From: Coprobacillaceae bacterium
GTDB taxonomy: Bacteria; Bacillota_I; Bacilli_A; Erysipelotrichales; Coprobacillaceae
Assembly (NCBI GenBank): GCA_963675515.1
Contig: OY776328.1
Span: 900,001-932,000 of the forward strand
Length of the DNA: 32,000 nt
Reading direction: 5' to 3'
Program-made: the position numbers and the translations under genes
Part shown: piece by piece, positions 5,413-32,000 of the stretch
Position numbering within the stretch: the stretch's first letter is position 1
How the letters are laid out: each line of letters starts with the position of its first letter
The notes under the pieces: model-generated
What the model was told of the DNA's origin: nothing
The model's input: the letters and a program-made list of their open reading frames with translations, nothing else
Database searches by the model: none

Positions 5413-5491
5413 AAGGCCTCCTTTTCCATTATACCAATATTTTCAATTTTTGATAGTCATAAAAACTTTTATTGACATTGTTTCTTTGTTG

Positions 5492-5505
5492 TGAAACCGG
5501 TTATA
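5492..5505 (+). promoter_or_regulatory. Candidate cre (CcpA) catabolite-responsive element overlapping a TATAAT box
   Basis: TGAAACCGGTTATA matches the cre consensus TGWAANCGNTNWCA at all defined positions but one. It overlaps TATAAT (5502-5507) upstream of the EIIC gene. Confidence 0.35.
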
Positions 5506-5596
5506 ATAACAGTGTAATCAAAACAGGCCGAGCATTACAACAGTTTTCGAAAACCAGAATTGAAAAACTCAAAACAAAATATTAGGAGAGAATATT

Positions 5597-6913: not shown

Positions 6914-6939
6914 GCTTCTGCTTTTGATTAAACAGTATT

Positions 6940-15815: not shown

Positions 15816-16973
15816 ATGTCAAAAAGATTTATCTTAAATGAAACAAGCTACCATGGAAGCGGAGCAATCAAGGAGATTGTGAGTGAGGCAGTTTCCCGCC
15901 AATTCAAAAAAGCCCTTATCGTAACTGACAAGGACCTGGTGAAATTCCAGGTAGTCAAAAAAGTGACTGACCTTTTGGATGAAGCAGGACTTGCTTATGA
16001 GATTTTCGACGAGGTAATGGCTAATCCGACTATCGAACTGGTTACCAATGGAGTAGCAGCCTTCAAACAAAGCGGGGCGGACTACATGATCGCCATCGGT
16101 GGCGGATCACCTCAGGACGCAGCAAAAGCGATCGGAATCATCATCAACAATCCGGAATTCGCCGATGTGAGATCTTTGGAAGGTGTCGCACCGACCAAAA
16201 ACAAATGCGTTCCAATCATCGCCGTGGCAACTACAGCCGGAACCGCAGCTGAAACGACAATCAATTATGTCATCACTGACGTCCAAAACAAACGCAAATT
16301 CGTCTGCGTCGATGTCCATGACATCCCAGTAGTGGCGATTGTTGATCCGGACATGATGGCTTCGATGCCAAAAGGACTTACTGCAGCTACTGGTCTTGAT
16401 GCCTTGACTCATGCGATTGAAGGCTATACGACTCTAGGTGCGTGGGAACTGGCTGATACTCTTAACCTTAAAGCGATCGAACTGATTGCCAGAAGCTTGG
16501 AAGCTGCCTGCCAGAACGATTCTAAAGGTCGTGAGGACATGGCTTTGGGTCAATATATGACCGGAATGGCTTTCTCGAACGTGGGACTAGGTGTAGTCCA
16601 TGGTATGGCTCATCCGCTAAGCGCATTTTATGACACGCCTCATGGTATCGCCAATGCTGTGTTGCTTCCTTACGTGATGGAGTACAACAAAGACTTCACT
16701 GGAGCGAAATTCAAGGAAATCGCCAAAGCGATGGGTGTAAGTGGTGTCGAAGCCATGAGCGAAGCTGAATACAAGCAAGCCGCTATCGATGCGGTTGTCA
16801 CCCTGTCTAAAAACTGTGGAATTCCTCAGACCTTGAAGGAAATCGGTGTCAAGGAAGAAGACCTTGAAGCCTTGACTGCAGCGGCCATGGCCGATGTGTG
16901 TACCGGTGGGAATCCTCGTCCTTGCCAAAGCGATGAGATCCTGGCATTATACAATACAGCATATAGCGGATAA
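15816..16973 (+). CDS. fucO: Lactaldehyde reductase / L-1,2-propanediol oxidoreductase (iron-containing ADH)
   Basis: 385 aa with RBS AGGGAGAAG. Fe-ADH motifs: GGGSPQDAAKA and GVVHGMAHPLSAFYDTPHG. Its position after rhaD fits reduction of the L-lactaldehyde released by RhaD. Confidence 0.85.
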   Translation: MSKRFILNETSYHGSGAIKEIVSEAVSRQFKKALIVTDKDLVKFQVVKKVTDLLDEAGLAYEIFDEVMANPTIELVTNGVAAFKQSGADYMIAIGGGSPQDAAKAIGIIINNPEFADVRSLEGVAPTKNKCVPIIAVATTAGTAAETTINYVITDVQNKRKFVCVDVHDIPVVAIVDPDMMASMPKGLTAATGLDALTHAIEGYTTLGAWELADTLNLKAIELIARSLEAACQNDSKGREDMALGQYMTGMAFSNVGLGVVHGMAHPLSAFYDTPHGIANAVLLPYVMEYNKDFTGAKFKEIAKAMGVSGVEAMSEAEYKQAAIDAVVTLSKNCGIPQTLKEIGVKEEDLEALTAAAMADVCTGGNPRPCQSDEILALYNTAYSG

Positions 16974-17098
16974 TTTCTGCCAAAATTGTCCAAACCTTCC
17001 ATTATAATTTAATCATTCGCAACTAATCCATTATCAATTTTATAACACTAATCCAATAATATAAGACCGTGCCAAGTGCACGGTCTTTTCATTTGGGA
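16479..17098 (+). repeat. Left copy of the ~620-bp direct repeat (intact fucO 3' end, 3' UTR and terminator)
   Basis: Collinear with 26290-26906 from GAACTGATTG to CACGGTCTTT. My hand comparison gives roughly 45 mismatches or indels in about 620 nt. An extra 9-mer, TTAACCTTA, is shared at 16462 and 26262. Confidence 0.85.
17063..17089 (+). terminator. fucO rho-independent terminator
   Basis: AAGACCGTGC-CAAG-TGCACGGTCTTTT: a GC-rich stem followed by a T-run. Confidence 0.7.
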
Positions 17099-17229
17099 AT
17101 TATTCACTAAGTGTCAATCCATCGTACAAAATCCAGATAAGGTAAGCCTGTTTGTTTAAATAAGCATATATGATTATCAAGTGAGCCGGTCAATTGGCGG
17201 AATCCAATTATCTCCTTGTCAATAACTTG

Positions 17230-17274
17230 TTGATGTCAAGTATACTTGATATCAATAAGTTTCTTCGGTATGAT
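17230..17274 (+). promoter_or_regulatory. Sigma-A-type promoter overlapped by a 26-bp palindromic operator
   Basis: The palindrome TTGATGTCAAGTATACTTGATATCAA (17230-17255) has 24 of 26 positions symmetric. The -35 TTGATA (17246-17251), a 17-nt spacer, and the -10 TATGAT (17269-17274) lie upstream of the 99-aa ORF. Confidence 0.4.
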
Positions 17275-17313
17275 TAAAGAGGTTAATTAATTTACATTAG
17301 GAGGAATAATTGA

Positions 17314-17613
17314 ATGTTTAGTCACATGGATGAAATTGAATTATTACAATATCTAAAAGCTGTCAGAATAACATATTACTTCACGTTGACGTTAGAAGTA
17401 ATTGCTTTCATATATTCTATACCCTGTTTAAACGAGTACTCAAATTTGATATTGCTCTTTATTTTGTCGCAACGTCTTCTTGTTACCATTGTTGTTGAAT
17501 ATTACAAAGTAAAGGCAGGTAAGAAAATGAGTAAAATACGTTTTGTCGCTGGTTGCATATTGATGATTGCTATAATGTTATTAATAATAAAATTGTCCTT
17601 AGTTCCCGGGTAG
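17314..17613 (+). CDS. Hypothetical small membrane protein (about 3 TM segments)
   Basis: 99 aa with a very good RBS (AGGAGG, 8 nt from the ATG). It has hydrophobic segments and a lysine-rich loop. I recognise no family. Confidence 0.5.
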   Translation: MFSHMDEIELLQYLKAVRITYYFTLTLEVIAFIYSIPCLNEYSNLILLFILSQRLLVTIVVEYYKVKAGKKMSKIRFVAGCILMIAIMLLIIKLSLVPG

Positions 17614-17970
17614 CTTTTCTAACCACATCTCAGGTTTTCGGTATCCTGACCGGGCATTCAATACCAAATGCTTTGTAGCAATCATTCGCCTTCTTGAAAG
17701 CTTCTTGAGTGATTGGCTCATATTTTTATCCTCGCTATCATGTCTAAATGATACGCTAAGAGGATGAAAAAGTTAAGGAAAACAGCAATTTTAGAAGGCA
17801 CAAAACACCCTTCTATCGCAACTTTAATTTAGGATAAAACCGAGTAAAAAGTTTACCTAAGTCATGTGGTCATTCAAAAACAACATTCTAAATATTAATC
17901 TTTCAATCTAAATAGACAGAGAATCTGTGAATTAACACGTTACATTTCCATTTTAGAAATAATATTCCTA

Positions 17971-18064
17971 GTTGATGTTGTTGGTGCGAATATTATGATT
18001 TTCGTGCTCATCTGTGGATTTAAAAGAGCTTTTTTGCTTTAATTTTATTATACCAACTGAGAGG
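17971..18064 (+). promoter_or_regulatory. Paralogue of the agrD-like promoter with candidate LytTR direct repeats
   Basis: It aligns without gaps to 31633-31726, about 71 of 94 identical by hand count. Direct repeats TTGGTGC (17981-17987) and TTCGTGC (18001-18007) are 20 bp apart. The -10-like box is TATACC (18049-18054), followed by a GAGAGGGGAG RBS-like run. Confidence 0.45.
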
Positions 18065-18090
18065 GGAGAGTGGTGGAGTAATCAAAAACC

Positions 18091-18258
18091 ATGTTAATGT
18101 TTGAAGTATATTTACTTGTTTCGGCATTTGTTTCATTAATTCTTAAAATGTCACGAGTAATTCCTAGAAAAAATATACTTATTATAGATAAAATGGTATT
18201 GAAATGGCCTGTAGCATTCATTACAGTTGCCTTGAGGATATATATTCACAACAGGTGA
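18091..18258 (+). CDS. Hypothetical 55-aa two-helix hydrophobic peptide downstream of the LytTR-box paralogue
   Basis: ATG at 18091 to TGA at 18256-18258 (MLMFEVYLLVSAFVSLILKMSRVIPRKNILIIDKMVLKWPVAFITVALRIYIHNR). It lacks a well-spaced RBS and overlaps a minus-strand track ORF. The call is weak. Confidence 0.25.
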   Translation: MLMFEVYLLVSAFVSLILKMSRVIPRKNILIIDKMVLKWPVAFITVALRIYIHNR

Positions 18259-18687
18259 ATATATATATTTACTTGGATGGTTGATTATTTTGGACTTTGT
18301 GGACATTATTATGTGTTTCAAAAAATCAAATAAATAATAGTACACGCCAAATAGAGCGTTGGGCCATTCGTGTAGTACGATATCGATAAAATCATTGGCA
18401 CGTAAAAAGGAATACCGCAACTTCTATTTCTGTTTTGGTATTCCTTGTTTCAGTTCTTTGATTTCCTTGCAGGTTTACTGCCGCAAATGTGTTGGCAATA
18501 CTTCATGGTAAGGAAGTAGTTTCTTAATTCTTCTTTATTTTCAGGATCGTTATTCGGTAGTCGCGCTAGAATCCATGATTGAAGAATAAAACACGCACAC
18601 ACCAAACATATTAAAAAAATGAATCTGAAATTATCGAATTCATTTATAGTTGTTTACTAAAATTTAGAAATCAATAGATTTAAAGTG

Positions 18688-18716
18688 TCGACATGAGTTA
18701 ATTTGAGTATTATACT
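18688..18716 (+). promoter_or_regulatory. Sigma-A-type promoter upstream of the small membrane protein and bacteriocin genes
   Basis: TCGACA (18688-18693), a 17-nt spacer, then TATACT (18711-18716). Confidence 0.45.
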
Positions 18717-18812
18717 ACGTAAAGAGTAGCTAACTGAGGTTTAATTGATTATTAGCTGCCTATCTGCTGCATCTAAACGATAAATATTAAATATGTAATT
18801 TAAGAAAGTAAA

Positions 18813-19028
18813 ATGAGGATTCGAATTTTGAAAATTATTATTATGCATTTGCCATTCGTTCTATTTATAATTACTGCGATATTTTTAAGAATAATTAATG
18901 TACCTTTAGTTTATAAGGCTATATTAATTGTGGCGGTAATTATTTACGGTGTGTTTTTTACAAAAAAATCTAGGAGTTATTTTCAAGACATGCTCTCTGG
19001 CAGCAACGTAAATGAGAACAGGAAATAG
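18813..19028 (+). CDS. Small cationic two-TM membrane protein; candidate circular-bacteriocin immunity protein
   Basis: 71 aa with two hydrophobic helices and a basic tail (KKSRSYF...NENRK). It lies immediately upstream of the bacteriocin gene. Size and character match the small immunity proteins of circular bacteriocin clusters. The assignment rests on context only. Confidence 0.45.
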   Translation: MRIRILKIIIMHLPFVLFIITAIFLRIINVPLVYKAILIVAVIIYGVFFTKKSRSYFQDMLSGSNVNENRK

Positions 19029-19134
19029 ATTTATAGAGGGGTTAAAATTATTTCCAATTTGGCCGTTCTATTCTACATTATCATCAAGTTGATGAAGTTA
19101 TAGATATATATAATTAGAAAGGGGGGTGAATCAA

Positions 19135-19368
19135 ATGGGAGCATTGTTATTTTTAGTCGCTGGAACATTAGGGGTCAGCACAACTATTGCAACATCGGTT
19201 GTTAGCATTGTATTGACAGGGTCAACTATTATCACTATTATTTTGGCACTTACTACAATCCTTTCTGCTGGTGCAGATGCAATTTTGACAATGGGATGGA
19301 CAGCTTTCGTTACAACAATTAAGACTATTGCTCAAAAGCAAGGTATTAAATATGCTGTGGCCTGGTAA
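19135..19368 (+). CDS. Circular bacteriocin precursor, circularin A/uberolysin-like (77 aa: ~7-aa leader plus ~70-aa core)
   Basis: The ATG at 19135 lies 8 nt after the RBS AAAGGGGGG. The track start at 19126 is a GTG inside the RBS. The sequence is MGALLFL/VAGTLGVSTTIATSVVSIVLTGSTIITIILALTTILSAGADAILTMGWTAFVTTIKTIAQKQGIKYAVAW. It aligns along its whole length with my recollection of circularin A (MFL/VAGALGVQT...LMTIGWATFKATVQKLAKQSMARAIAY). The C-terminus resembles AS-48 (...AVIAW). DUF95 and ABC ATPase genes lie downstream. Confidence 0.8.
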   Translation: MGALLFLVAGTLGVSTTIATSVVSIVLTGSTIITIILALTTILSAGADAILTMGWTAFVTTIKTIAQKQGIKYAVAW

Positions 19369-19436
19369 CTATTCCAAAAAATCAATAGTCGAATGGCGTG
19401 TGCTACACGCTTTCGGCTATTTTAATTATAATAAAG

Positions 19437-21114
19437 GGTAGTGTCAAATTCGTTATGGAAAAACAGTGATTTTTTCATAATAGAGTTTCGTGTTCGTTTT
19501 GTCGGTAATACCTAAGCGCTTCTTCCATGAGGATGTTCCACTTGTTTGGCATGTTATGAGTTTTCTTCAAACAATCCAATTCAACTGGTGGCTTGTATCC
19601 CAGGGAGGTGTGATTTCTTAGGAAATTGAAATATGTTGTGAACAGACACATGAAATCATTTGCGCCATCCAATGAGTTGAAGCCATTTTTGATCGCGTAG
19701 GTTTCTCCAAATGTTCTATTCAAACGCTCTATTATTTGTTTGGCAGGGCGATGTTCTTTTGATACAGGATCATCATTCGTAAGTCCAATTACTTGAGTCA
19801 CTTTAAAAAATACTCTTTTGATTTGAAAATACTGTTGAGCGGCTTTATATATCGGATTTCCGTCAACAACGATCTCAAAGTCAGTCGGTAACTTTTTGAA
19901 TTTTCTCATGACTGAATAAAAGGCATTTATAGCCGCAAAGGTATCTCTTTTCATGAAAATTCGATACGAAGTTATTATTTTTTTCCTAACATCGCACATG
20001 AAAAATACATAGGCTTTTTTTCCTAAAACTTTGACGTATGTTTCGTCTCCACAATGATACGAGTTCAAATCGTGCTTGTAGTTATCCATCCACGGAAATA
20101 GGAGATGGCTGGCTGCCTGAGCGTAGTTAGCTATTGTTTGATGGGATATTTTGATATCGTGAATCTCGTATAAAACCAAAGCGGTTTTTCTAAGAGACAG
20201 GCCATAATTAACGTAATACGTCAACGCTAGGCCTAAAACATGCTTAGAATTGTGGATTCTGGAGAGATCAACTTTTGATGGTGCTATTTTCAGCTGGATG
20301 CTTTCAAGTTTTTCGATTGAAGCATCGAAGACGCGGGTTATGTAGTGAAGCGAGAATTTAGAAGGATTTACCTTGTATTTCTTTTTATCTTCTTTTGTTA
20401 GTTTCTTCAACTCACTCTTATAGTGAGAACATCTAGAGTTTTGACATTTATAGACATCAAAACCATCACGTGATTTGATCAACGTCAACTTGCGGCCGCA
20501 GTGAGGACACTTGCGGATCAATTGTTGCGAATAACTCTTATTAAGTGAGAAAGTCGTATCACAAACTTTGCACTTAACTTGGGATTTCTTGATTCCGTTG
20601 TTGAAAGTCAGGTATTCATGAGTGGCGCCGCAATGTGGGCAAACAGTATCTTCAGATGGATAGTCTTTGCCTTCATGTCTAAACACCGGTTTCAAAGGTC
20701 GTTTATGTTTGGATTCATACTCATCCCTGGCCTGTTGAAATGGGATGGGGATTAATTGCGGTTCAATAACAGGAAGCGGATGCATTTTGAAACGACGATA
20801 TGGTTCACTCTTACTTGAATCCGTACCATCACTGGGAAGATGCTTTAGCAGGAAACACTCAAATTTGTACAAAAATCTACGAATGATATTTAAAAAATTG
20901 ATTATTAATGATATAATTTTGACCATGGTAACAGTCCTCCTTATTGTGGTTTAGACACTTACAATTATGAGGCTGTTACCTTTTTTTGTAAACAAAATGG
21001 TCAAATTATAGGGTGAAATCCGGGGGAATTTACCTAAATATATAAAAAACCAAGGTAGAATGCGGTTTTCCAGTTAATTATGGTTGTAAATAACTAACTG
21101 GTTTTGACACTACC
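19437..21114 (-). mobile_element. IS6-family-like insertion sequence (long form with Zn-finger N-terminal extension), 1678 bp
   Basis: Perfect 12-bp terminal inverted repeats GGTAGTGTCAAA sit at 19437-19448 and, as complement, at 21103-21114. An 8-bp target duplication TAATAAAG lies at 19429-19436 and 21115-21122. There is a single transposase ORF. Confidence 0.8.
19475..20926 (-). CDS. IS6-family-like DDE transposase with N-terminal zinc-ribbon region
   Basis: 483 aa with RBS AAGGAGG. CxxC pairs: CPHCG...CKVCD and CPHCG...C. The DDE core resembles IS26/IS257-type transposases (GDETYVKVLGKKAYVFFMCD, VVDGNPIY, QIIERLNRTF). Confidence 0.85.
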   Translation of the reverse strand: MVKIISLIINFLNIIRRFLYKFECFLLKHLPSDGTDSSKSEPYRRFKMHPLPVIEPQLIPIPFQQARDEYESKHKRPLKPVFRHEGKDYPSEDTVCPHCGATHEYLTFNNGIKKSQVKCKVCDTTFSLNKSYSQQLIRKCPHCGRKLTLIKSRDGFDVYKCQNSRCSHYKSELKKLTKEDKKKYKVNPSKFSLHYITRVFDASIEKLESIQLKIAPSKVDLSRIHNSKHVLGLALTYYVNYGLSLRKTALVLYEIHDIKISHQTIANYAQAASHLLFPWMDNYKHDLNSYHCGDETYVKVLGKKAYVFFMCDVRKKIITSYRIFMKRDTFAAINAFYSVMRKFKKLPTDFEIVVDGNPIYKAAQQYFQIKRVFFKVTQVIGLTNDDPVSKEHRPAKQIIERLNRTFGETYAIKNGFNSLDGANDFMCLFTTYFNFLRNHTSLGYKPPVELDCLKKTHNMPNKWNILMEEALRYYRQNEHETLL

Positions 21115-21137
21115 TAATAAAGGTAGGTACATTTATT

Positions 21138-22259
21138 ATGAAAATTACTAATTATGTTAAAATGATATGTTTATTTTATAAAAACATATCACTTGAGAAA
21201 ATATCATTTATAGCAAGGAAAATGAAAAGTGATAATCCATTTAGAATGCATTTAATTTGTGAATCATTGAAACTGTTTAGTTCAATTTTGATGATTATCT
21301 TGTTATATAATAATGTATATAGTTATAACACAAATCTATTTGTTTCCATTTTATTGTTAATTTACCTTGTACAAAATTTGTTGATGCTTGTGGGTCCCTG
21401 GAAGATAATAAGAAAGAGATTCAAATATAGTTACTTACGGATGACTGCTTCCGGAGATTGTATGTATCTCCGAAAAGTTATTGTGCTTAACTTTTTTGTT
21501 GAATATTTATTATCACTTCCAATGAATTTGCCTATTTTGATTGGACTTATAGTCACAGCCAATTTGTTTGCGGTGCTGTTAGCCATAAATATTAGTGCGT
21601 TATCATTTCTTTTCTACATAATCAGACATTCTCAAAAGATGTTGAGAAAAGGACCAATGGCTACAATAATGTTTTTTGTTTCACGTATGTGCACATTTTC
21701 AATAGGTTACTTATTTGCATTTATATTATCAAGATTGGTCTTAATATCTAGATCTGGAATAAAAGAATTTGGTTTGTCCGTAATGTACGTTTCATGGGTG
21801 GATAGTATAATTAACGATTCTTTGTTTTCCATAACAAAATATTTTCGTAATATATTATTAAACGTCGATTACTATCTAGTAAACGACTATCGAATTATTA
21901 GTTTTCTATTAATATTGATATTATTTTTCGTATTTATTTCGTTAATGATTTTGAAACGTATTTCTAAAGAAATCATACAAATAACATACAAATTACCAAA
22001 TTGCTATATTAACTCATTAAGTAAATTTGAAAATAAACATGAAATTGATAATCCGTTTTTGTTCAAAGATCTGTGCATTTTCATTGATAAAACAAGGAAA
22101 CTTGAGTACAGTCCAATGGAGTTCCTATTTACGAATGAGCTGTTCTTTTTTATAGGGATAAATATAGTATTTTTACCACTAATCAATAATTATTTTATCT
22201 TTGCGTTTTTATTTGTTTTTGAACTTTTTTTCTTAATTGACCACCAAATACATCCTTAA
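21138..22259 (+). pseudogene. N-terminal part of the IS-disrupted large polytopic membrane protein (CirB/As-48B-like maturation protein)
   Basis: Multi-TM ORF. Its last 9 codons and the stop at 22257-22259 are read from the left end of an IS. Native sequence ends at the TSD at 22224-22231. Confidence 0.7.
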
Positions 22260-22289
22260 ATCTAATAATGATTTACACACCGTTTTTCC

Positions 22290-23433
22290 GGCTATGTTAG
22301 CCCAAAGCAATGCTTTCATAGATGAAGCCTGTTCCAATATAATTTTCTCGCCTAAAATCACAATGGCATTGATAAATATCCACAAAATAATCATGGACGT
22401 CTCTAGCTCTTGTTTCAATCATGTATGCTATGTACGCCAGATATTCATTAAGGTATTTAGAAGATATCCCATTGTGTTTTTTCATATACTTTTCAATTTG
22501 AGAATGCACGTAATTGACGTGATTTATGTGGTAGATTCCTCGCTTTGCCTTGCTTTTTGCTGGAAACGCATAATGGTCGATTTTCAGACTCTCACTTAAT
22601 CTTCGATATACGAATAATCCATCCGTACAAAGCGTTGTTGCTTTTTGAAGGTGTTTCAGATATACAGCGGTTGTCGTTTCGTTATCAAGCGTTGTCGATC
22701 CGATCTTAGCGACCTTGAGTAATATATGGCCGTTCCTGTCAACCGCGCTTGCTATTTGTACGGCATCGGTTATATTTTGATCTTTCTTGTCTCTACGGTT
22801 ACCTTTTCGTCCTCTTTTATAGGGCTTCCTGGGTAATGGTTTTGCCGCCTGTTTACTGTGATTCCCGGAATAACTGATGTTTACGCTCATTTCATCTAAT
22901 TCCACAATCCCGCTAAGCTCAACGTTTTCCATCCTGTGAGCTAGCGCGTTCAATATTTTATGGCGCATGAAAAAACTGCATTTTAACGACACTCCTGCAT
23001 ATTTGGCACAGTCCCTCAAATCTTCGTCATGGCTCATTATTATCAGATACTTAAGCCAGGTTATATAAGAAAGTTTGGTATTCTCCAAAATTGTACCAAC
23101 ATACGGAGTAAAAGTTTTACCGCAATCAATGCATCTAAAACGTTGTGTTTTGTTTTTGTAGTGGCCATCTCGTTTAATATGATGGTGACCGCAACGAGGG
23201 CACGAAATTGAATCGTTGTGTTTGGCTTCTAATGCATCCACAAGGATCTTGGTGTAATCATTTAGAAGTTGACGGTCCTGAATGAAAACAATTAGGGCGT
23301 TTAAATCATCGCTGTTTAAAGTATCCAGTTCATTCTTAATTTTTTCTAATTCCATGGTTATCCCACCTCTTCTCTATTATACACCTAATTCTACAGGAAA
23401 AGTCGATAAACATCTTTATGGGCTAACATAGCC
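22290..23433 (-). mobile_element. IS1595-family-like element A (1144 bp), nested 50 bp inside the left end of element B
   Basis: 14-bp perfect inverted repeats are GGCTATGTTAGCCC (22290-22303) and GGGCTAACATAGCC (23420-23433). The 8-bp target duplication GTTTTTCC lies at 22282-22289 and 23434-23441. Confidence 0.8.
22297..23355 (-). CDS. IS1595-family transposase (zinc ribbon plus ISXO2-like DDE domain)
   Basis: 352 aa with RBS AGAGGTGGG. Zinc ribbon: CPRCGHHHIKRDG...FRCIDCGKTF. It has an ELDEMSV acidic motif. The stop codon lies in the terminal repeat. Confidence 0.85.
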   Translation of the reverse strand: MELEKIKNELDTLNSDDLNALIVFIQDRQLLNDYTKILVDALEAKHNDSISCPRCGHHHIKRDGHYKNKTQRFRCIDCGKTFTPYVGTILENTKLSYITWLKYLIIMSHDEDLRDCAKYAGVSLKCSFFMRHKILNALAHRMENVELSGIVELDEMSVNISYSGNHSKQAAKPLPRKPYKRGRKGNRRDKKDQNITDAVQIASAVDRNGHILLKVAKIGSTTLDNETTTAVYLKHLQKATTLCTDGLFVYRRLSESLKIDHYAFPAKSKAKRGIYHINHVNYVHSQIEKYMKKHNGISSKYLNEYLAYIAYMIETRARDVHDYFVDIYQCHCDFRRENYIGTGFIYESIALG

Positions 23434-23511
23434 GTTTTTCCGCCTTCTAAATTCTTGGTTTTTAGTGATTAGACTTCATCACTTTGGTATGATATTACCG
23501 AGGTGATATCA

Positions 23512-24483
23512 ATGGCAATAAAACTAAAACCGAAGAAAGATTCTTTAATAACTCTTACTAGAAAATATGCTAATGACAATGATGAATGTGTGAAGTTCTT
23601 CTTCACTATCAAGTGGCCTGAAGGGTTCTACTGTGAAAAGTGCGGTTGTACGCATTACTACTTCATTGAAAGTAGAAAAGCTTATCAATGCAAGGAATGC
23701 AAACATCAGCACTATCTGCTAGCAGGTACCATATTCCAGGACACCAAGCTCGAACTTTACAAACTGATCTTAGGCATGTATATTTTCTTTACCTCCAATA
23801 AAGGTGTTTCAGCAATAGAACTCGCAAGTGAACTCGACGTCAATTACAAAACAGCCTTACTTCTTGCCAGAAAATGTCGAATTTTGATGGCTCAAAGCTG
23901 TAGTGAAAAGATGCTCGATAGCTTGTTTTATGAAGCTGACGTCGCATATATTGGATCCAAGAGCAAAGAGAAGAATCGTCAAGGTTGTGCTACAGAGCAA
24001 CAGCCTTTTTTGGTCGTACTTTCGACGGATGCAGAAAATCATTACCCAAAATACATCAAACTTCACCCTATTCCAACCGACAATCAAATCCAGGTAAAAA
24101 ATGTCATCTCGAAGAGCATCAAACTATCAAAGGATCGAAAACTGAATACCGATGGCAAAACTACATTTAACAAAATTGAGGATGAGATTGAGTTGTGTAA
24201 GGAAAAGATCATTTACAAAGAGGATGATCATCGCTTGTATTGGATTAACACTTTGATTGGTGATATCAAAAACAATATCACTGGAATATATCATGGCGTA
24301 GCAAAGCGGGATCTGCCTTTATTCCTAAATGAGCAGGAGTGGCGCTTCAACCACCGTTATACAGGTGCTTATTTCATGGATAAAATAAGAAAATATCTGC
24401 TACTTTCATCGCCGATGCCAAAAAGAAAAATCGTAACGGTTCTTAACTTAGCAGAATCATATTTTTCAAGTACATGTATCTGA
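23512..24483 (+). CDS. IS1595-family transposase of element B
   Basis: The likely start is the ATG at 23512, 6 nt after GAGGTG. The track start at 23503 is the GTG inside that RBS. N-terminal motif: FFFTIKWPEGFYCEKCGCTHYY...YQCKECKHQH...AGTIFQDTKL. It has an EADVAYIG motif. The stop lies inside the right inverted repeat. Confidence 0.8.
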   Translation: MAIKLKPKKDSLITLTRKYANDNDECVKFFFTIKWPEGFYCEKCGCTHYYFIESRKAYQCKECKHQHYLLAGTIFQDTKLELYKLILGMYIFFTSNKGVSAIELASELDVNYKTALLLARKCRILMAQSCSEKMLDSLFYEADVAYIGSKSKEKNRQGCATEQQPFLVVLSTDAENHYPKYIKLHPIPTDNQIQVKNVISKSIKLSKDRKLNTDGKTTFNKIEDEIELCKEKIIYKEDDHRLYWINTLIGDIKNNITGIYHGVAKRDLPLFLNEQEWRFNHRYTGAYFMDKIRKYLLLSSPMPKRKIVTVLNLAESYFSSTCI

Positions 24484-24503
24484 TGGTCAATTAAGCTTTT
24501 TTT

Positions 24504-25107
24504 TATAATTGTAGGAAATTTAAGAATTGTAACATATAGATTTGATGAAGTGTTTAGATTTAGAAGCGATATCGATAAATGGAAAATAATTTACTTGTCG
24601 GGCACTAGAGGAACATATCAGGTCTTGTTTTCAAAATATTATTTGTTGAAGCACCTTGCCAAAATCCCTTGTTTATTTACTTGTTTTGTGTTATTTGTAA
24701 TGTTTTCTGGCTATATGTCAATATATGCTACCATTCTTATTCTAGATATTGCGATCGTCATTGCACTCTTTAGCGATATAGTTAAATGGATACTGAGAAC
24801 AGATTACGATTTTTATTGTATAATTATTAAAAACAAGTACGCAGTTAATGAGGTCTCGATTGAGGATTATTTGGGTTATAATCTGGTATCCAATGCAAAT
24901 AAAACGGTACATAGGTTGTTTTTGTTTGTTACATTTTTTATTTTAATATTATGTTCGTTTTTGAAGTTAATTTCAGGATGGCAATGGGTTATATTTTATG
25001 TTACATATTTAATTGTTTTCGTGATCGATATAAAAGCAAATTCTATGTACTATCCTACGGATAAAATAATTAAAATTGGAAGGAGAGAATTGAATGAGCA
25101 GAATTAA
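24504..25107 (+). pseudogene. C-terminal part of the IS-disrupted CirB/As-48B-like membrane protein
   Basis: The frame is open from the right target duplication. The track ORF 24550-25107 merely starts at an internal GTG. Joining 22231 to 24504 keeps the frame (see findings). Confidence 0.7.
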
Positions 25108-25621
25108 TAGAATAATATCCGGGCATGTCAAATACTTATGTATTTCTATATCTGTTTATATTTTAGGGATAATTTTTGGAATGATTATTTCAGCTGATAC
25201 GAAATTGACTATCAATCCAACTAGTATGCAATTTGTTGAAACATTTGTCCACAATGAAATAATCGGGTTAGGTTTGGTTGTTTTTGGAATTGTAACGTTT
25301 GGATTTTTCAATACTATTTTCCTGGCATACAATGGGTTTTCATTGGGTTTGATAATAATTGGCGTATACAATCAATATGGTATAAGTCCATTGATTTCTG
25401 GTGTTGCCCCACATGCTCTAATTGAAACTTTTGCCATAACAATGTCATGTACGCTAGGATATGAGTCGTTGCGCCTTGTAAAGATGGTAAAAAATAATTT
25501 AGATTCGGATATAAAGGGAAAAATTTATATAAGTGATTTTATAATATTACTAATATCCACTAGTTTGCTATATGTTGTCGGGGCATTCATAGAATCATCA
25601 TTCTCAAATGTAATAATATAA
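25094..25621 (+). CDS. DUF95/SpoIIM-family membrane protein (As-48C/CirC-like)
   Basis: 175 aa with about 4 TM segments and RBS GGAGAG. It overlaps the upstream gene by 14 nt. The conserved PH-x-x-x-E motif (APHALIETFAIT) is typical of SpoIIM/DUF95 proteins found in circular bacteriocin clusters. Confidence 0.7.
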   Translation: MSRINRIISGHVKYLCISISVYILGIIFGMIISADTKLTINPTSMQFVETFVHNEIIGLGLVVFGIVTFGFFNTIFLAYNGFSLGLIIIGVYNQYGISPLISGVAPHALIETFAITMSCTLGYESLRLVKMVKNNLDSDIKGKIYISDFIILLISTSLLYVVGAFIESSFSNVII

Positions 25622-25634
25622 AGGGGGCAAGAAA

Positions 25635-26264
25635 ATGAATGATGTAGTACTTGATATAAAAGAGTTATCATATAGTTATGACGGGAAAAAATTTATCTTA
25701 AAAAATATAAACTTTTTCATTAGAGAAGGAGAGGTGGTAAAACTTAGTGGACCTAACGGGGTTGGCAAATCGACATTTCTTAATATAGTTTCAGGTCTAA
25801 TTGATGATTCCAATTTAGAATATACTGCGGAATTTCAAAATGAGGAGATAATATTTGAAAATATGCGTTCTAGAATATCTTTTGTACTGGATACACCAGA
25901 ATTATTCGATCAACTTACTGGATCTGAAAACATTAAAATGTACAGCTTACTGTTTGAGTGTGATGATGCATATTTTGATAGAGTTCTGGACTGGTGCAAT
26001 AAATATCGTATAATAGATTTTTTAAGCCGTCCGGTAGAAGAGTATTCCTTGGGTACTCGACATAAATTGTTCTTAGCGATACTCATATCGAGAAAAGTTG
26101 ATCTTATTCTTTTAGATGAGCCTTTCAATGCTTTGGATGATTCTAGTAGAAAATACCTTGTTGGGCATATTAATTCTTGTAGAGACTCTTCGTTCATCAT
26201 TGTTTCACATCTTAATCAACCTGGTCTGAAATTGGATAGGGATTTTGAAATGAAATTATATTAA
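25635..26264 (+). CDS. ABC transporter ATP-binding protein (As-48D/CirD-like)
   Basis: 209 aa with RBS AAGGGGG. Walker A: GPNGVGKST. Degenerate signature: YSLGTRHKL. Walker B: LILLDEPFNALD. No cognate permease gene is adjacent. Confidence 0.85.
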   Translation: MNDVVLDIKELSYSYDGKKFILKNINFFIREGEVVKLSGPNGVGKSTFLNIVSGLIDDSNLEYTAEFQNEEIIFENMRSRISFVLDTPELFDQLTGSENIKMYSLLFECDDAYFDRVLDWCNKYRIIDFLSRPVEEYSLGTRHKLFLAILISRKVDLILLDEPFNALDDSSRKYLVGHINSCRDSSFIIVSHLNQPGLKLDRDFEMKLY

Positions 26265-26289
26265 CCTTAGTTCCTAGTCGGCTTTTCTT

Positions 26290-26783
26290 GAACTGATTGT
26301 CAGAAGCTTGGAAGCGGCCTGCCAGAACGATCCTAAGGGTCATGAAGACATGGCTTTGGGTCAATACATGACCAGAATGGCTTTCTCGAACGTGGTACTT
26401 GGTGTGGTCCATGGGGTGGCTCATCCACTAAGCGCATTTATGACACGCCTCATGGCATCGCCGATGCCGTGTTGATTCCTTACGTGATGGAGTACAACAA
26501 AGACTTCACCGGAGCAAAATTCAAGGAAATCGCCAAAGCGATGGGTGTAAGTGGTGTCGAAGCCATGAGCGAAGCTGAGTACAAGCAAGCCGCTATCGAT
26601 GCGGTTGTCACCCTTTCTAAAAACTGTGGAATTCCTTAGACCTTGAAGGAAATCGGTGTCAAGGAAGAAGACCTTGAAGCCTTGATTGAAGCTGCCATGG
26701 CCGATGTGTGCACCGGTGGGAATCCTCGTCCTTGCCAAGGCGACGAGATCCTGGCATTATACAAAACAGCATATAACGGATAA
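26290..26783 (+). pseudogene. Decayed duplicate of the fucO 3' end (last ~165 codons)
   Basis: Collinear with 16479-16973. It has a 1-nt deletion in the T-run at ~26437-26439 (GCATTTATGAC versus GCATTTTATGAC). It has an in-frame TAG at 26637-26639 (CAG in the intact copy). Several substitutions are non-synonymous. There is no 5' part and no start codon. Confidence 0.85.
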
Positions 26784-27024: not shown

Positions 27025-27591
27025 TCAGGATTGTTCCGGTTTACTTGGTAATAATACCGAATTCAATATTATTGCCGATATCGATAAAAAAGATCCGGTA
27101 GCGGCGTAGCTAGTATATCCGCTTTTTACGGATGATAAAATCAAGATCGTTATAGTATTCAGCGAATACAAAATAAGTTTATTTCGAAGATCATTTCTCT
27201 CAAAAGTCCTTTTCCAAGGATTAATATTTATCAGCACAAATATTGAAAGAAATAGAAAGTACCCCAGGACATAGATCATAATTGAAGGCATAATGGAACT
27301 TAATAACATCCCAATTGACCAAATAATAATACCTAATAAGTAGCATCCAAAAGGTGTTTTGGAATGATACCCGGCATTGTTGGTCCTGAAGACAAGAAAA
27401 CACGATAGCATTATCAGGGATTCCAAAAATCTGCCGCTAAGTATCGAAATGATTAAATAACTAATGGAATTTAACGCAAATAATATTATAGCGGATAAAG
27501 CATATTCTATTTGCTGCATTTTGAATGCGTCATCAATGCAATTTTTTTGGCAAATTTTACGTGAAAGACGTGAAACAAATACGTGCAGCAT
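27025..27591 (-). CDS. agrB: AgrB-family AIP-processing membrane peptidase
   Basis: 188-aa polytopic protein. The motif FRTNNAGYHSKTPFGCY places a His and a Cys 7 residues apart, as in S. aureus AgrB (RRHAHGAHAPSSFWCY). Its ATG lies 1 nt after the kinase stop, with the GAGGTG RBS inside the kinase 3' end. Confidence 0.8.
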   Translation of the reverse strand: MLHVFVSRLSRKICQKNCIDDAFKMQQIEYALSAIILFALNSISYLIISILSGRFLESLIMLSCFLVFRTNNAGYHSKTPFGCYLLGIIIWSIGMLLSSIMPSIMIYVLGYFLFLSIFVLININPWKRTFERNDLRNKLILYSLNTITILILSSVKSGYTSYAATGSFLSISAIILNSVLLPSKPEQS

Positions 27592-27592
27592 T

Positions 27593-28861
27593 TTACACCT
27601 CAGTATTATAAATATAAATATTAATGTCTTGATGGGTTACCGCCGGGATTAGGATGGTAACTTTAAATGTTGCCTCCGTATAACTGACATCAATCATGCC
27701 ATCGTATTTTTTTACTATTCTTCTGATGTTTTTCAAACCGTAACCGTGATTAGCGCCACCCTTTCGTGAAAGGATTTTAGAATCACTTAAAATGATTTTT
27801 CCGTCAAATGTGTTCTCACAAATTATTCTAATCATTTTGTTTGGAAGTAGAGCTATTGATATACGAACCCTTTTATTCTCTGTGGTTTGAGCAGCTTCTA
27901 AAGCATTGGAAGTAATATTTCCAAATAATGAACACAAATCAAAATTATCGATGTGAGAAATGTCCGGAACTTCTAACTCGATATCGAGTGAAACGCCCAA
28001 TAAATTACTTTTACTGATAAAGTCACTTATTGTAGAGTCAAGGTAGATGTTTCCTGTATTCACAACGATAATTTTGTTGTCCATTTCCAATCCGATATTA
28101 TTGATATATTCTTCCAATTGAGTATATGACTTATTCGAGACAAGATGGCCAAGCGTGTTGAGGTGGAATTTTACGTCATGCTTCCATGATTTAAGGTGGT
28201 TGTATGATTTGATTGTTTTGTCATAAAGTTCGGTTCTGAGTTCATTCTCTTTAAGCAATAGGTCGATACTGTATTTTCTCGTTAAGTTTGTAATTAGTAT
28301 TCTTGTTTGAACAAATGAGATTAAATTGACTGCAAAAAGGGAGACAGTAATGACCAACAAATACAGATTATCTGAATTAAACTCTAAATAATGTCTTAAT
28401 ATAAATACCATGGATAAAACTGAAGCCAGTGGCACTACCATATATAAATAAACGTATCTTTCATTATTATCAAGATTGTTTGAATAAGAACCTCTGTTCA
28501 TTTGAAGAGAGATAAGAAACATCAGTATAAATATTATTGTTCTTGTAATAATCATCAGCAGTAATCTGATGAACTCTTCTCCCATCAGCTGCTGGACATC
28601 AATGCTTGAAAACGATGTTACCAGTGATATGGTAATCAATTCGACCAGGTTAAATATCAAAAAAGCAACAACTGGAACTAAAAATTTAAATAGAAAGCGC
28701 CCGCTGTAAAAAATCAGTGAATATAAGATATAAATTAGAAATACCAGCATTACTGCGCTTGAATTGTATTTTTGAATGGTAAACACAGTTAAAATTGCAG
28801 ATATAAAAATGAAAATTGCTGCGTTGATATAACGCATTGGAAGTTCTTTATTTACTAGCAT
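27593..28861 (-). CDS. agrC: AgrC-like (HPK10-type) membrane sensor histidine kinase
   Basis: 422 aa with about 6 N-terminal TM helices. H-box: WKHDVKFHLNTL. N-box: GNITSNALEAA. G-box: NHGYGLKNI. The RBS at 28861 is poor, so the start is uncertain (the alternative is the MRYIN Met). Confidence 0.8.
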   Translation of the reverse strand: MLVNKELPMRYINAAIFIFISAILTVFTIQKYNSSAVMLVFLIYILYSLIFYSGRFLFKFLVPVVAFLIFNLVELITISLVTSFSSIDVQQLMGEEFIRLLLMIITRTIIFILMFLISLQMNRGSYSNNLDNNERYVYLYMVVPLASVLSMVFILRHYLEFNSDNLYLLVITVSLFAVNLISFVQTRILITNLTRKYSIDLLLKENELRTELYDKTIKSYNHLKSWKHDVKFHLNTLGHLVSNKSYTQLEEYINNIGLEMDNKIIVVNTGNIYLDSTISDFISKSNLLGVSLDIELEVPDISHIDNFDLCSLFGNITSNALEAAQTTENKRVRISIALLPNKMIRIICENTFDGKIILSDSKILSRKGGANHGYGLKNIRRIVKKYDGMIDVSYTEATFKVTILIPAVTHQDINIYIYNTEV

Positions 28862-28978
28862 TGAATCAATAAAAAACAGGACGAGAAAGACATCTACTAA
28901 ACCCCCTGTGTTAGGATAGTTGTCGTATAGAACGTTTTAGATTATACTTAGTAAAAAGTATACCAAGGAGACCTAGCC

Positions 28979-29455
28979 ATGACCAAAACTTATACGACAG
29001 AAGAAAAAATCAAGATCATCAGTGAGGTTGAACCACCACTTAACAAGACGGTTGTTCAGATTGCTGAAGAAACCGGCATCAAGACGACTACACTATATTC
29101 TTGGAAAAGAAGATACCTCAAAAATCATTCAGTTTCTAAAATCAAAGAACGCTACAACAAGGAACAACGTTTCCATTTCATCGCTGAATCCGCTCCCCTC
29201 AGTGAACATGAGCTCGGTGAATATTGCCGCAAAAAAGGGATTCATCCTGATGAGTTGGTTAAGTGGAAGAAGGAATTCCTAAGCCCTGAAACCAAGTCCG
29301 ATTCTCTAAAAGATGACCTGCAAGCCGAACGGCAAAAGCGCAAAGAGCTGGAAAAACAATTGCGCCGCAAGGAAAAGGCATTAGCCGAGGCAGCTGCATT
29401 ACTGGTTCTTGAAAAAAAGCTCCAGGCAATTTGGGACGACAACGAGGAAGATTAA
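28979..29455 (+). CDS. IS3-family transposase OrfA (HTH plus leucine-zipper region)
   Basis: 158 aa with RBS AAGGAG. HTH: VVQIAEETGIKTTTLYSWKRRY. It has a coiled-coil C-terminus. The A7G slippery site lies near the 3' end. Confidence 0.85.
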   Translation: MTKTYTTEEKIKIISEVEPPLNKTVVQIAEETGIKTTTLYSWKRRYLKNHSVSKIKERYNKEQRFHFIAESAPLSEHELGEYCRKKGIHPDELVKWKKEFLSPETKSDSLKDDLQAERQKRKELEKQLRRKEKALAEAAALLVLEKKLQAIWDDNEED

Positions 29456-30507
29456 CGACTCTCAAATTGCGCAAAGAAATCGTTACGTTAATCAAAGAAG
29501 CGAACGCCAATGGTGCCCGCTTGATCCCGGCATGCAAGGTGGCAGGGATTTCGAAACGGACGTATGAAAGATGGACTCAAGAAGACAATATTTCCACTGA
29601 TAGGCGTAAAGAACCACGGCTAAATCCTCCAAAGAATAAGCTCAGCAATGAAGAACGCGAAGCTATAATGAGAATAGTTAACAGTCCTGATTATAGGCAA
29701 TTGACACCGGCTGAGATTGTTCCGTTACTGGCTGACAAAGGTATCTATATTGCTTCAGAATCAACCATCTACCGTCTATTAAGAGAGTTGAAACAATTGA
29801 AACATCGCGGCCGTACAGCCCCGAAGCACCACAGACAAGCCACCACCCATATTGCAATCAAACCGAACCAAGTTTGGAGTTGGGACATCACTTGGTTGCA
29901 CCGCAAGGATATCCGAGGAGTTTATTACAAGCTATACATGATAATGGACATCTTCAGCCGCAAAATTGTCGGGTACGAAGTATGGGAGACGGAAAACGCT
30001 GAATATTCCGCAATCCTGATGCAACGCACACTTTTAAGCGAACGAATCAATGGCGAACCGCTGGTCTTGCACTCCGATAACGGTGGTCCGATGAAGGCAG
30101 CTACATTTCTGGGGATGCTCGAGAATCTTGGTGTGCAAAGCTCATTTTCTAGACCGCGGGTAAGCAACGATAATCCATATTCTGAATCGTTGTTTAAGAC
30201 ATTTAAATATATGCCAAAATACCCCACAAGCGGTTTTGAATCACTCACACACGCTAGAAGCTGGGTCAATGAATTTGTACAATGGTACAACGAAATTCAC
30301 TTACACAGCGGAATCAAATACGTGACACCCGCCAGTCGCCATCGAGGGGAAGATGCTGCGATACTGCAAAAAAGGAAAGAAGTTTATGCTGAAGCTAAAA
30401 TGAAAAACCCTGAACGATGGAGTGGATCAGCCAGAGACTGGTCCTGGATTGAAGCAGTTGCCCTAAATCCGACAAAAGAAAGTGAATTATTGATCAACGA
30501 AGTTTAA
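29431..30507 (+). CDS. IS3-family transposase OrfB (rve DDE integrase core), expressed as an OrfAB fusion by -1 frameshifting
   Basis: It lies in frame -1 relative to orfA. DDE core: WSWDITW, LHSDNGGPM, NPYSESLFKTFK. Confidence 0.85.
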   Translation: MGRQRGRLTTLKLRKEIVTLIKEANANGARLIPACKVAGISKRTYERWTQEDNISTDRRKEPRLNPPKNKLSNEEREAIMRIVNSPDYRQLTPAEIVPLLADKGIYIASESTIYRLLRELKQLKHRGRTAPKHHRQATTHIAIKPNQVWSWDITWLHRKDIRGVYYKLYMIMDIFSRKIVGYEVWETENAEYSAILMQRTLLSERINGEPLVLHSDNGGPMKAATFLGMLENLGVQSSFSRPRVSNDNPYSESLFKTFKYMPKYPTSGFESLTHARSWVNEFVQWYNEIHLHSGIKYVTPASRHRGEDAAILQKRKEVYAEAKMKNPERWSGSARDWSWIEAVALNPTKESELLINEV

Positions 30508-30610
30508 CAAGCGCAACTCAAGAATTTGCATAATTAATATGAAAAAAATGCGTCAACTATATTGACAAATACCGTAAATTGATAATAATCTCAGACATTA
30601 AATACATGTG

Positions 30611-31318
30611 CTATCCTCCAAAAAATTTCAAAAACAGATTTTGTACATCTTTCATTTTTGATCTCCCTACCGGAATTGAGTCTCCGTTAGAAATTTGAAC
30701 ATACTGACTTTTAAACGAAGCCACATAGTTCAAATTTACAATGTATGACCTATGTATTCTAAACATATCATGGTCAATCAACAAATCTTCAATTTTTGAA
30801 ATTGGAATATTGATTTGCTTTTCTTCTTCTATCATATGAAATATGCAATTATGTTTATCTGACTCAACATACATAATGGATTTTGTATCTATCGTATAGT
30901 AACCGTTTGATGCGTCTAAACGAATTAATCTGTCGATGTTTTTTTGAAGAGAATTAGCAATCTGATCTAATGTTTTATTTAATCTAGTCTGGTTGACGGG
31001 CTTTACAATATAATCCAGCGCAGACACCTCATATCCATTGATTGCAAACTGGCTGTGTGAAGTAATAAAACATATTATGATATTCTTATTGTTTTTCCTG
31101 AGCTCTTTAGCAAATTCAATACCGGAAATTTCAGGAATTTCTATATCGAGTAGTGCCACATCGCAGTCCATTGCTTCTCCAGGAATCATGTATGATACTT
31201 TATTGGTAACGGTAAATTCTACAATGTTATTTGTGTTTTTTGCCCAATTGTCGATATATCCAATTAAAATGTCCCGGTCTATTTTAGAATCTTCAGCGAT
31301 GAAAAAACTAATGTTCAT
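30611..31318 (-). CDS. agrA: LytTR-family response regulator (AgrA-like)
   Basis: Start moved to MNISFFIAEDSK with RBS GAGAGGGG. The track start at 31447 adds 43 implausible residues. The receiver domain has DVALLDIEIP, and the C-terminal LytTR domain has IMYVESDKHNCIF...FRIHRSYIVNL. Confidence 0.85.
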   Translation of the reverse strand: MNISFFIAEDSKIDRDILIGYIDNWAKNTNNIVEFTVTNKVSYMIPGEAMDCDVALLDIEIPEISGIEFAKELRKNNKNIIICFITSHSQFAINGYEVSALDYIVKPVNQTRLNKTLDQIANSLQKNIDRLIRLDASNGYYTIDTKSIMYVESDKHNCIFHMIEEEKQINIPISKIEDLLIDHDMFRIHRSYIVNLNYVASFKSQYVQISNGDSIPVGRSKMKDVQNLFLKFFGG

Positions 31319-31632
31319 GTAATTATCCCCTCTCTCATTTTGTTTCAATTCTACATGATTGTAACATATATTTTGCAGTTTGTATAATTGTTCCGAACAT
31401 AAATCCGTCAATATAAAGGATACAGGAGAGTATTTTTGTATAAACATAATACATTACTTAATTAATCATCAAATACAGGTGAGCACGGTATTGGATTATT
31501 GTCGATTTTGAAAAATCACCAAATGTCGCGCATTTTGGATGTAGTAATATTTCTTCGTTACTGACTATGAACTCCAAGATGTATCTGTTGGCTAATTAAG
31601 AAACATTATTTTTTTGTTCAATTATTTTCTTT

Positions 31633-31726
31633 GGTGTTGTTGTTGGTGCAAAAATTTTGCTTTTCATGCTCAATAGTGGAATCTAAAGAAATTTGATGTT
31701 TAAAATTAATTATACTAAATGAGAGG
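31633..31726 (+). promoter_or_regulatory. agrD-like promoter with candidate LytTR direct repeats
   Basis: Direct repeats TTGGTGC (31643-31649) and TTCATGC (31663-31669) are 20 bp apart. The -10 box TATACT lies at 31711-31716 with no good -35, which suggests activator dependence. RBS GAGAGGAG follows. It is paralogous to 17971-18064. Confidence 0.45.
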
Positions 31727-31736
31727 AGATAATCGA

Positions 31737-31856
31737 ATGGAATCAAAAAAAGTTGTGAAATTTTTGATAAAAATATCACAGGCTGCTAGCGACATAACTT
31801 GCTGGGGTGCATTTTTTCAACCTGATGCGCCAAAACGAAAATTTATTTCAAAATAA
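31737..31856 (+). CDS. agrD: AgrD-like autoinducing-peptide precursor (39 aa, below the ORF-track size cut-off)
   Basis: The peptide is MESKKVVKFLIKISQAASDITCWGAFFQPDAPKRKFISK, with RBS GAGAGGAG 7-8 nt upstream. It has an amphipathic basic N-terminus. A single Cys is followed by 4 residues (CWGAF). The tail is aromatic-Q-P-x-x-P, comparable to L. plantarum LamD (CVGIW/FETKIPDE) and Listeria AgrD (CFMFV/YEPKSP) as I recall them. Confidence 0.65.
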   Translation: MESKKVVKFLIKISQAASDITCWGAFFQPDAPKRKFISK

Positions 31857-32000
31857 GTGGGATCTATAAATGATTATTTGAATGACCATATTACACAGGC
31901 TGCAATTCTATGGGGTTGCGAAAATACGGTAACTGATATGAAATGACTAATTTGTTGGATTATTAAGCGGCTAAATTTAGAAATTTCACAACCAAAATCC

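Follow-up and report, generated by a model that had tools for sequence, protein, structure and literature searches.

A probable AgrD-family autoinducer precursor gene transcribed divergently from agrA-agrC-agrB in a Coprobacillaceae bacterium whose AgrC-like kinase gene is split by an IS3-family element

The agr-type loci treated as characterised in a 2025 primer are agrBDCA, agrBD plus agrCA, agrD1B1, lamBDCA and fsrBDCA. None of them has a CWGAF ring, and rings of loose similarity are [CVGIW] of Lactiplantibacillus plantarum and DI-[CNGYF] of S. lugdunensis (PMC12312760). In a further study from 2025 the models PF04647 and TIGR04223 were used to mine 223,243 RefSeq genomes, which returned about 34,600 AgrD precursors (PMC12180512). 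Because the models applied below are the same, AgrD calls as such are routine.

Two clostridial systems, agrD1B1 of C. difficile (ANST[CPWII]) and agrBD of C. perfringens ([CLWFT]), share with the precursor described here a single cysteine and a hydrophobic ring of five residues that contains Trp (PMC12312760). Clostridial agr loci often have a gene order that differs from agrBDCA. Yet clostridial agrD adjoins agrB, whereas in the present locus it is divergent from agrA-agrC-agrB and 2.3-4.1 kb away from agrB, and the AgrB found here is far from all others. LamD558 of L. plantarum has a five-residue ring of the type C-x-G-x-aromatic derived from a short precursor ([CVGIW]), as does CWGAF, and a LytTR regulator and an HPK10-type kinase are common to the lam locus and ours (PMC12312760). 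On the other hand, lam is organised as a single operon, lamBDCA, and its ring has another sequence.

The DNA analysed, hereafter called the window, is a stretch of 32,000 nucleotides. On its forward strand an open reading frame at 31737-31856 (ATG at 31737, TAA at 31854-31856) encodes the 39-residue peptide MESKKVVKFLIKISQAASDITCWGAFFQPDAPKRKFISK and was assigned as an agrD-like coding sequence by profile match and conservation. A first-pass annotation, made from the letters alone, had described an unlisted frame of 39 amino acids with a strong ribosome-binding site. Frame and site were present as described: the Shine-Dalgarno sequence GAGAGGAGA at 31721-31729 (+), read from the sequence, precedes the ATG by 7-8 nt, and its GAGAGG/GGGAGG core is kept in all related loci. 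The frame was indeed absent from the track that accompanied the first-pass annotation, but the identical 39-residue sequence has already been called as a protein (P0023 in NCBI and ENA, on a contig of 2,881,239 bp). A second in-frame ATG at 31719 overlaps the Shine-Dalgarno sequence, and in the related locus L003 the codon matching it is CTG, while the codon at the MESK position is TTG. Thus we regard 31737 as the real start.

The three-part layout of AgrD that had been claimed for the peptide also holds. It comprises an amphipathic leader, MESKKVVKFLIKISQAASDIT, the predicted ring CWGAF, which begins with the sole cysteine C22 after 21 residues and continues with WGAF, and the tail FQPDAPKRKFISK. 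Residues 2-17 had a helical hydrophobic moment of 0.51, a value reached by 3.5% of shuffled sequences; the leaders of the relatives yielded 0.40-0.50, reached by 3.7-9.1% of shuffles. Substitutions in the leader are conservative among the relatives (K/N, I/V, F/L). The tails are 9-13 residues long, charged and net basic (+1 to +5) with a conserved QP..PK motif.

The window peptide matched the NCBIfam model TIGR04223, 'AgrD family cyclic lactone autoinducer peptide', with 26.9 bits and an E-value of 3.9e-6 at a curated cut-off of 19 bits, and the four relatives matched it with 31.5-41.7 bits. Thus the comparison with AgrD profile HMMs proposed at first pass was positive in 5 of 5 peptides. A Pfam search with the window peptide returned no family at E <= 0.1, the staphylococcal AgrD model PF05931 included. 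When the six-frame translation of the window was searched with an HMM of the peptide and its relatives, the agrD frame itself was the single match.

Relatives of the peptide were few. A word-index search yielded a single one, P0001, located on L001 (MESKKVVKFLIKISEAASDITCWGAFFQPDEPKKK), and phmmer against 1.84 billion representatives returned P0001 again and, in addition, P0009 (MNSSKLVKTLVKISDISSGITCWGVFYQPKSPKKIKVSR), a paralogue with the ring CWGVF; the loci L003 and L002 encode (M)ESNNIVKFLVKISEIANGITCWGAFYQPDAPKKN and MESNKVVKLLVKVSEIASNITCWGAFYQPKVPKQKYY, respectively. Long phmmer matches that covered multiple stretches, obtained with the peptide from the 1.84 billion representatives, were treated as spurious; P0013, which was inspected, has repeated ITCWG and resembles a repeat protein. 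With tblastn against plasmids the peptide gave chance matches only. Patterns derived from AgrB and a degenerate DNA pattern for TCWGAF(F/Y)QP had no matches in one genome each of 185,579 species and in the JGI metagenomes, and neither CWGAF nor CWGVF occurs in any searchable paper. The lineage carrying this agr-like locus is rare.

Upstream of agrD we found a conserved block, TGTTGTTGGTGCAAAAATTTTGCTTTTCATGCTCAAT, at 31637-31673 (+), about 65-100 nt before the start codon. It is near-invariant in four loci while its flanks diverge. Within the block lies an imperfect direct repeat, TTGGTGC / TTTCATGC, of the general form TTGGTGC-N13-TTTCRTGC, and in each of the five copies self-similarity was highest at a shift of 20 nt, as a LytTR regulator's pair of imperfect direct repeats would produce. 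The pattern TTGGTGC-N5-TTTT-N-CTTTTC-N-TGC occurred once per related locus with 0 matches expected by chance in the window. The direct repeat is a candidate binding site for the LytTR regulator of the locus. A candidate -10 element, TATACT at 31711-31716 (+), reads TTATAC(T/C) in all copies and is accompanied by a poor -35. The proposed agrD promoter was not picked up by a simple sigma-70 scan, which fits the weak -35, and the poor -35 suggests an activator-dependent promoter. The promoter that the first-pass annotation had placed at 31633-31726 is reasonable with regard to the conserved block and the candidate -10. The intergenic region between regulator and agrD also contains an insertion of about 140 nt, at about 31450-31590, which is absent from L001, L002 and L003 and had no match in the rest of the window, in the loci or in Rfam.

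The partner genes lie on the reverse strand. An AgrA-like response regulator at 30611-31321 (-) combines a receiver (PF00072) and a LytTR domain (PF04397) and matched the NCBIfam models AgrA, LytR and BtsR below their cut-offs. The gene of an AgrC-like kinase is present in two parts. Its first 11 codons (MYLMSEIIINL) at 30575-30607 (-) were located by alignment with the intact 445-residue kinases of L001 and L003, and the remainder at 27593-28901 (-) matched HATPase_c_5 with 69 bits. The window kinase is 96% identical to that of L001, an intact form with about 6-8 hydrophobic segments in residues 1-207, similar to the AgrC type. The last gene of the operon, at 27025-27591 (-), encodes an AgrB-like membrane peptidase of 188 residues (PF04647, 71.4 bits at a cut-off of 23) and overlaps the stop codon of the kinase frame. 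H75 and C82 of AgrB are invariant in four orthologues and, with the same seven-residue spacing, presumably align with the catalytic His and Cys of S. aureus AgrB. Among 5.8 billion proteins only three relatives of this AgrB were found at E <= 1e-5; the AgrB of L003 is 88% and that of L002 62% identical to it, and the PDB contained no sequence relative.

In all four loci, i.e. the window, L001, L002 and L003, agrD is divergent from agrA-agrC-agrB. L001 and L003 show this arrangement, agrD on the plus and RR-HK-AgrB on the minus strand, without an insertion sequence, and L002 shows it with a kinase gene split by an IS3 element. The combination of an intact kinase with a LytTR regulator is present in L001 and L003, whereas the window kinase is split. 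The distance between agrD and agrB, which are on opposite strands, is 4.1 kb in the window and 2.3 kb in the loci without an insertion sequence. The canonical agrBDCA order with agrD directly after agrB is absent from the window locus, and a search in the window for an AgrD-like frame beside agrB found none. Yet gene order varies across the agr family (PMC12312760), so the non-canonical order is compatible with membership.

The kinase gene starts at 30607, is broken after codon 11 by an IS3-family element at 28902-30574 (+) and resumes at 28901, as mapped against the uninterrupted L001. The element carries HTH_Tnp_1 and rve domains (orfA at 28979-29455, orfB at 29431-30507) and lies between the two copies of a TTTA target duplication (28898-28901 and 30575-30578). 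Its tblastn matches are annotated as IS3 family transposase, and megablast of the element against plasmids gave 0 matches. It is oriented opposite to the agrA-agrC-agrB operon and cuts off kinase and agrB both from the regulator gene and from the intergenic region upstream of the regulator, where the operon promoter presumably resides. The largest frame left in the kinase remainder, 27593-28861 with 422 residues, begins at the internal Met24 without an obvious ribosome-binding site. Because of the opposed IS3 element, this start and the overlap of agrB with the kinase frame, expression of kinase and AgrB in the window genome is doubtful. We infer that the agr circuit of the window copy is probably broken and that agrD is an intact gene in a locus that is likely disabled. 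Because its kinase gene is broken, this strain may fail to give LC-MS or reporter signals even with a correct assignment of agrD.

The window is not the only damaged copy. Insertion sequences have damaged 3 of the 5 loci of the clade, each at a different position (the window, L002 and L004), while L001 and L003 are intact. In L002 another IS3 element (7618-9194) sits in the middle of the kinase gene at a site that differs from that in the window. In L004 an IS66 element (5171-7424) truncates the regulator, the kinase gene carries a frameshift, and neither agrB nor agrD is left.

The agrD promoter region is present a second time, in an L003-like copy at 17880-18078 (+) identified by its conserved block (17981-18007), its ribosome-binding site and the alignment with L003. 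The block matches the pattern with 2 mismatches, where 0 matches are expected by chance, and of the agrD coding sequence only two codons remain before a stop (GTG GAG TAA). The copy is located about 1 kb upstream of circular-bacteriocin genes and could be a rearrangement fossil or a recruited promoter. A search for a terminator in the DNA that separates the copied promoter from the bacteriocin gene found none. Yet a separate sigma-70-like promoter at 18688-18716 makes a link between the copy and the bacteriocin speculative. The bacteriocin precursor at 19126-19368 (+) has 80 residues, matched TIGR03651 (circularin A/uberolysin family) with 71.4 bits at a cut-off of 30.7, and is 61% identical to an annotated uberolysin/carnocyclin bacteriocin from a plasmid of Anoxybacillus amylolyticus.

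The low-GC bacteriocin island (cluster at about 18800-26264) furthermore contains genes for a SpoIIM/DUF95 protein (25094-25621) and an ABC ATPase (25635-26264), as well as transposase genes at 19475-20926 (-), 22297-23355 (-) and 23503-24483 (+), of the DDE_Tnp_IS240/rve_3 type and, in two cases, of the IS1595 type. Two frames of 373 (21138-22259) and 185 residues (24550-25107) had no family match. Megablast of the island (17-27 kb) against plasmids gave 0 matches. Insertion sequences are very abundant in this part of the genome. At 26300-26783 (+) a frameshifted 3' fragment of a gene for an Fe-dependent alcohol dehydrogenase duplicates the end of the intact gene at 15816-16973 (+), which closes a rhamnose cluster (rhaB, rhaA, rhaD, Fe-ADH). 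Because the intact Fe-ADH gene directly adjoins agrB in L001, we conclude that about 9.3 kb of low-GC, transposase-rich DNA (17000-26300) were inserted in the window with duplication.

The DNA on the other side of agrD differs as well. In L001 (10252-11022) and L003 (1357-2139, minus strand) agrD is followed by a gene for a protein of 256-260 residues with a signal-peptide-like N-terminus; the two proteins are 48% identical to each other and had no domain match. In L002 an unrelated protein of 348 residues with a hydrophobic N-terminus follows (4744-5790, minus strand). The 144 nt after the agrD stop codon of the window (31857-32000) are unrelated to the downstream DNA of L001, L002 and L003 and had no match elsewhere in the window or the loci, and the window AgrD gains a C-terminal FISK extension. 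The extension and the unrelated 3' DNA suggest a further rearrangement just downstream of agrD.

Taken together, we consider it very probable that the frame at 31737-31856 truly encodes an AgrD-family precursor and belongs to an agr-type quorum-sensing locus, with agrD on its own transcript and divergent from agrA-agrC-agrB. The frame is short, and it lies in an intergenic region with a strongly conserved non-coding block just upstream, as would also be the case if it were no gene but a chance open frame in AT-rich regulatory DNA, in which the conserved element is a promoter or an RNA. Yet five independent sequences exceed the curated profile cut-off, and the frame is kept without indels over 34 codons in L001, L002 and L003, while identity among the loci collapses directly after the stop codon. 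Synonymous changes occurred at the codons for Cys (TGC/TGT), Ala and Gln and outnumber non-synonymous changes per site, with a pairwise dN/dS of 0.14-0.73, although these selection statistics are weak because five peptides are known, four of which are closely related. In addition, the Shine-Dalgarno sequence is conserved, and the window had no match in Rfam; a tRNA scan of it also came back empty. A chance frame is thus highly improbable. Cysteine and reading frame, the features to which the first-pass annotation had pointed in homologues, are conserved together with the ring residues and give no refutation, and its reading of the frame as an AgrD-like propeptide is supported by TIGR04223, the partner genes and conservation. 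A true agrD might still give rise to another mature product, namely a peptide that closes a ring of six residues, CWGAF(F/Y), or one that is linear or rearranged. An aromatic residue (F or Y) invariably follows the predicted ring, and a six-residue [CVLVTL] in C. acetobutylicum and a nine-residue lactone in FsrD are known, but five-residue rings account for most AIPs in the primer's table (PMC12312760). The distance from C22 to the start of the tail at (F/Y)QP is exactly five residues in all five AgrD peptides, and the peptide of a distant system, ...EASGTASWYGSYQPKEPKKL..., has a Ser nucleophile five residues before YQP..PK (ASWYGS/YQPKEPKK); the register is thus constant in 6 of 6 peptides, the distant Ser version included. 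Clostridial and Listeria AgrD tails start at an equivalent H/Y-(Q/E)-P, and the clostridial ones begin H-Q-P-x-x-P-K, which closely resembles the (F/Y)QPxxPK of the present peptides. The register in the relatives and in the distant Ser system supports a five-residue ring CWGAF, in line with the four residues after the cysteine that had been proposed at first pass, and we hold a different product to be improbable. By analogy, the product would be a thiolactone.

An AgrD precursor gene with a CWGAF ring may also be considered in the context of its genome. P0009 is a paralogous AgrD from the same genome as the window, whose ring CWGVF differs from CWGAF by one residue, and P0027, an intact kinase of 445 residues from this genome, is 62% identical to the window kinase; the contig of both has the length, 2,881,239 bp, of that carrying the window's own AgrB and AgrD proteins. 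The two point to a second agr-like system with a signal one ring residue apart. If so, the window agrD might still be signalling in that the paralogous system processes and senses its product, CWGAF acting as a second or interfering signal; agrD, the promoter block and agrB of the window have kept their reading frames intact. On the other hand, no second AgrB from the window genome was found at E <= 1e-5, staphylococcal AgrB and AgrC mostly recognise only partners of their own group (PMC12312760), and the idea is speculative. We consider it unlikely. A bolder version, in which the lineage runs at least two paralogous agr-like circuits (CWGAF and CWGVF) and the copied agrD promoter with its regulator box was recruited upstream of the circular-bacteriocin cluster, appears rather improbable. 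If it were true, a circular bacteriocin (17880-18078, then 19126-19368) would be under AIP quorum control, and insertion sequences would repeatedly knock out the receptor and generate signal-blind variants.

Thus we favor the view that the frame is the agrD of an agr-type locus which in its intact form may operate as follows. The 39-residue propeptide would dock on the membrane via its amphipathic N-terminal helix. AgrB, by way of His75 and Cys82, would cut off the tail after Phe26, and Cys22 would close the five-residue thiolactone C-W-G-A-F. A second protease would trim the leader, with Ile-Thr before the cysteine being invariant; the core shared by the five peptides is ITCWG(A/V)F(F/Y)QP..PK, while leader and tail end vary. 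The multi-pass AgrC-like kinase would sense the exported peptide and phosphorylate the LytTR regulator, which in turn may bind the direct repeat at 31637-31673 and raise transcription of agrD and, in the relatives, also that of the downstream gene for a secreted protein. Processing site, thiolactone, regulator binding and, for the window copy, loss of function are what we infer from the sequences.

The locus adds one uncharacterised AIP sequence (CWGAF, with the sister CWGVF) and an uncommon layout to a heavily mined family. It suggests which peptide is the likely signal in a Firmicute lineage that has been sampled little and provides a clean candidate regulator box, while the strain of the window is probably signal-blind. 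Damage by insertion sequences in 3 of 5 loci recalls staphylococci, in which agr is frequently lost, and could inform the evolution of quorum sensing.

Of the loci compared, L005-L007 (agrA-agrC-agrB-agrD, on conjugative elements) share with the window the RR-HK-AgrB order, the tail motif and the register. Yet their precursor is encoded on the same strand downstream of AgrB and has Ser, i.e. a lactone, instead of Cys, and their kinase is 24% identical. As an observation in its own right, L005-L007 (4286-11326) represent a widespread conjugative-element locus, the kinase of which was present in 317 blocks of the collection. Besides RR, HK and AgrB it encodes a 50-residue Ser-type AgrD-like peptide, a radical SAM enzyme and an ABC exporter with a C39 peptidase, and it may connect a RiPP cluster with an agr-like module.

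The agrBDCA locus of S. aureus (P2/P3) resembles ours in the divergent promoters within one intergenic region, the LytTR regulator with direct repeats and the three-part propeptide, and the His(+7)Cys pair of its AgrB is presumably the same as that of the window AgrB. Loss-of-function variants of agr recur in S. aureus, and damaged loci recur in the clade studied here. On the other hand, agrD of S. aureus is located inside the P2 operon while P3 drives RNAIII; here agrD is on the P3-like side, and in the relatives it is followed by a gene for a secreted protein. The canonical AgrD tail is charged, 14-15 residues long and acidic in S. aureus, and staphylococcal AgrD has a leader of 24-25 residues before the exocyclic residues (PMC12312760); in the window the tail is short and basic, and 21 residues precede the cysteine. 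Taken together, this kind of system is well known, and the locus is mildly unusual among its members in the divergent agrD, the short basic tail, the rare lineage and the receptor gene split by an insertion sequence.
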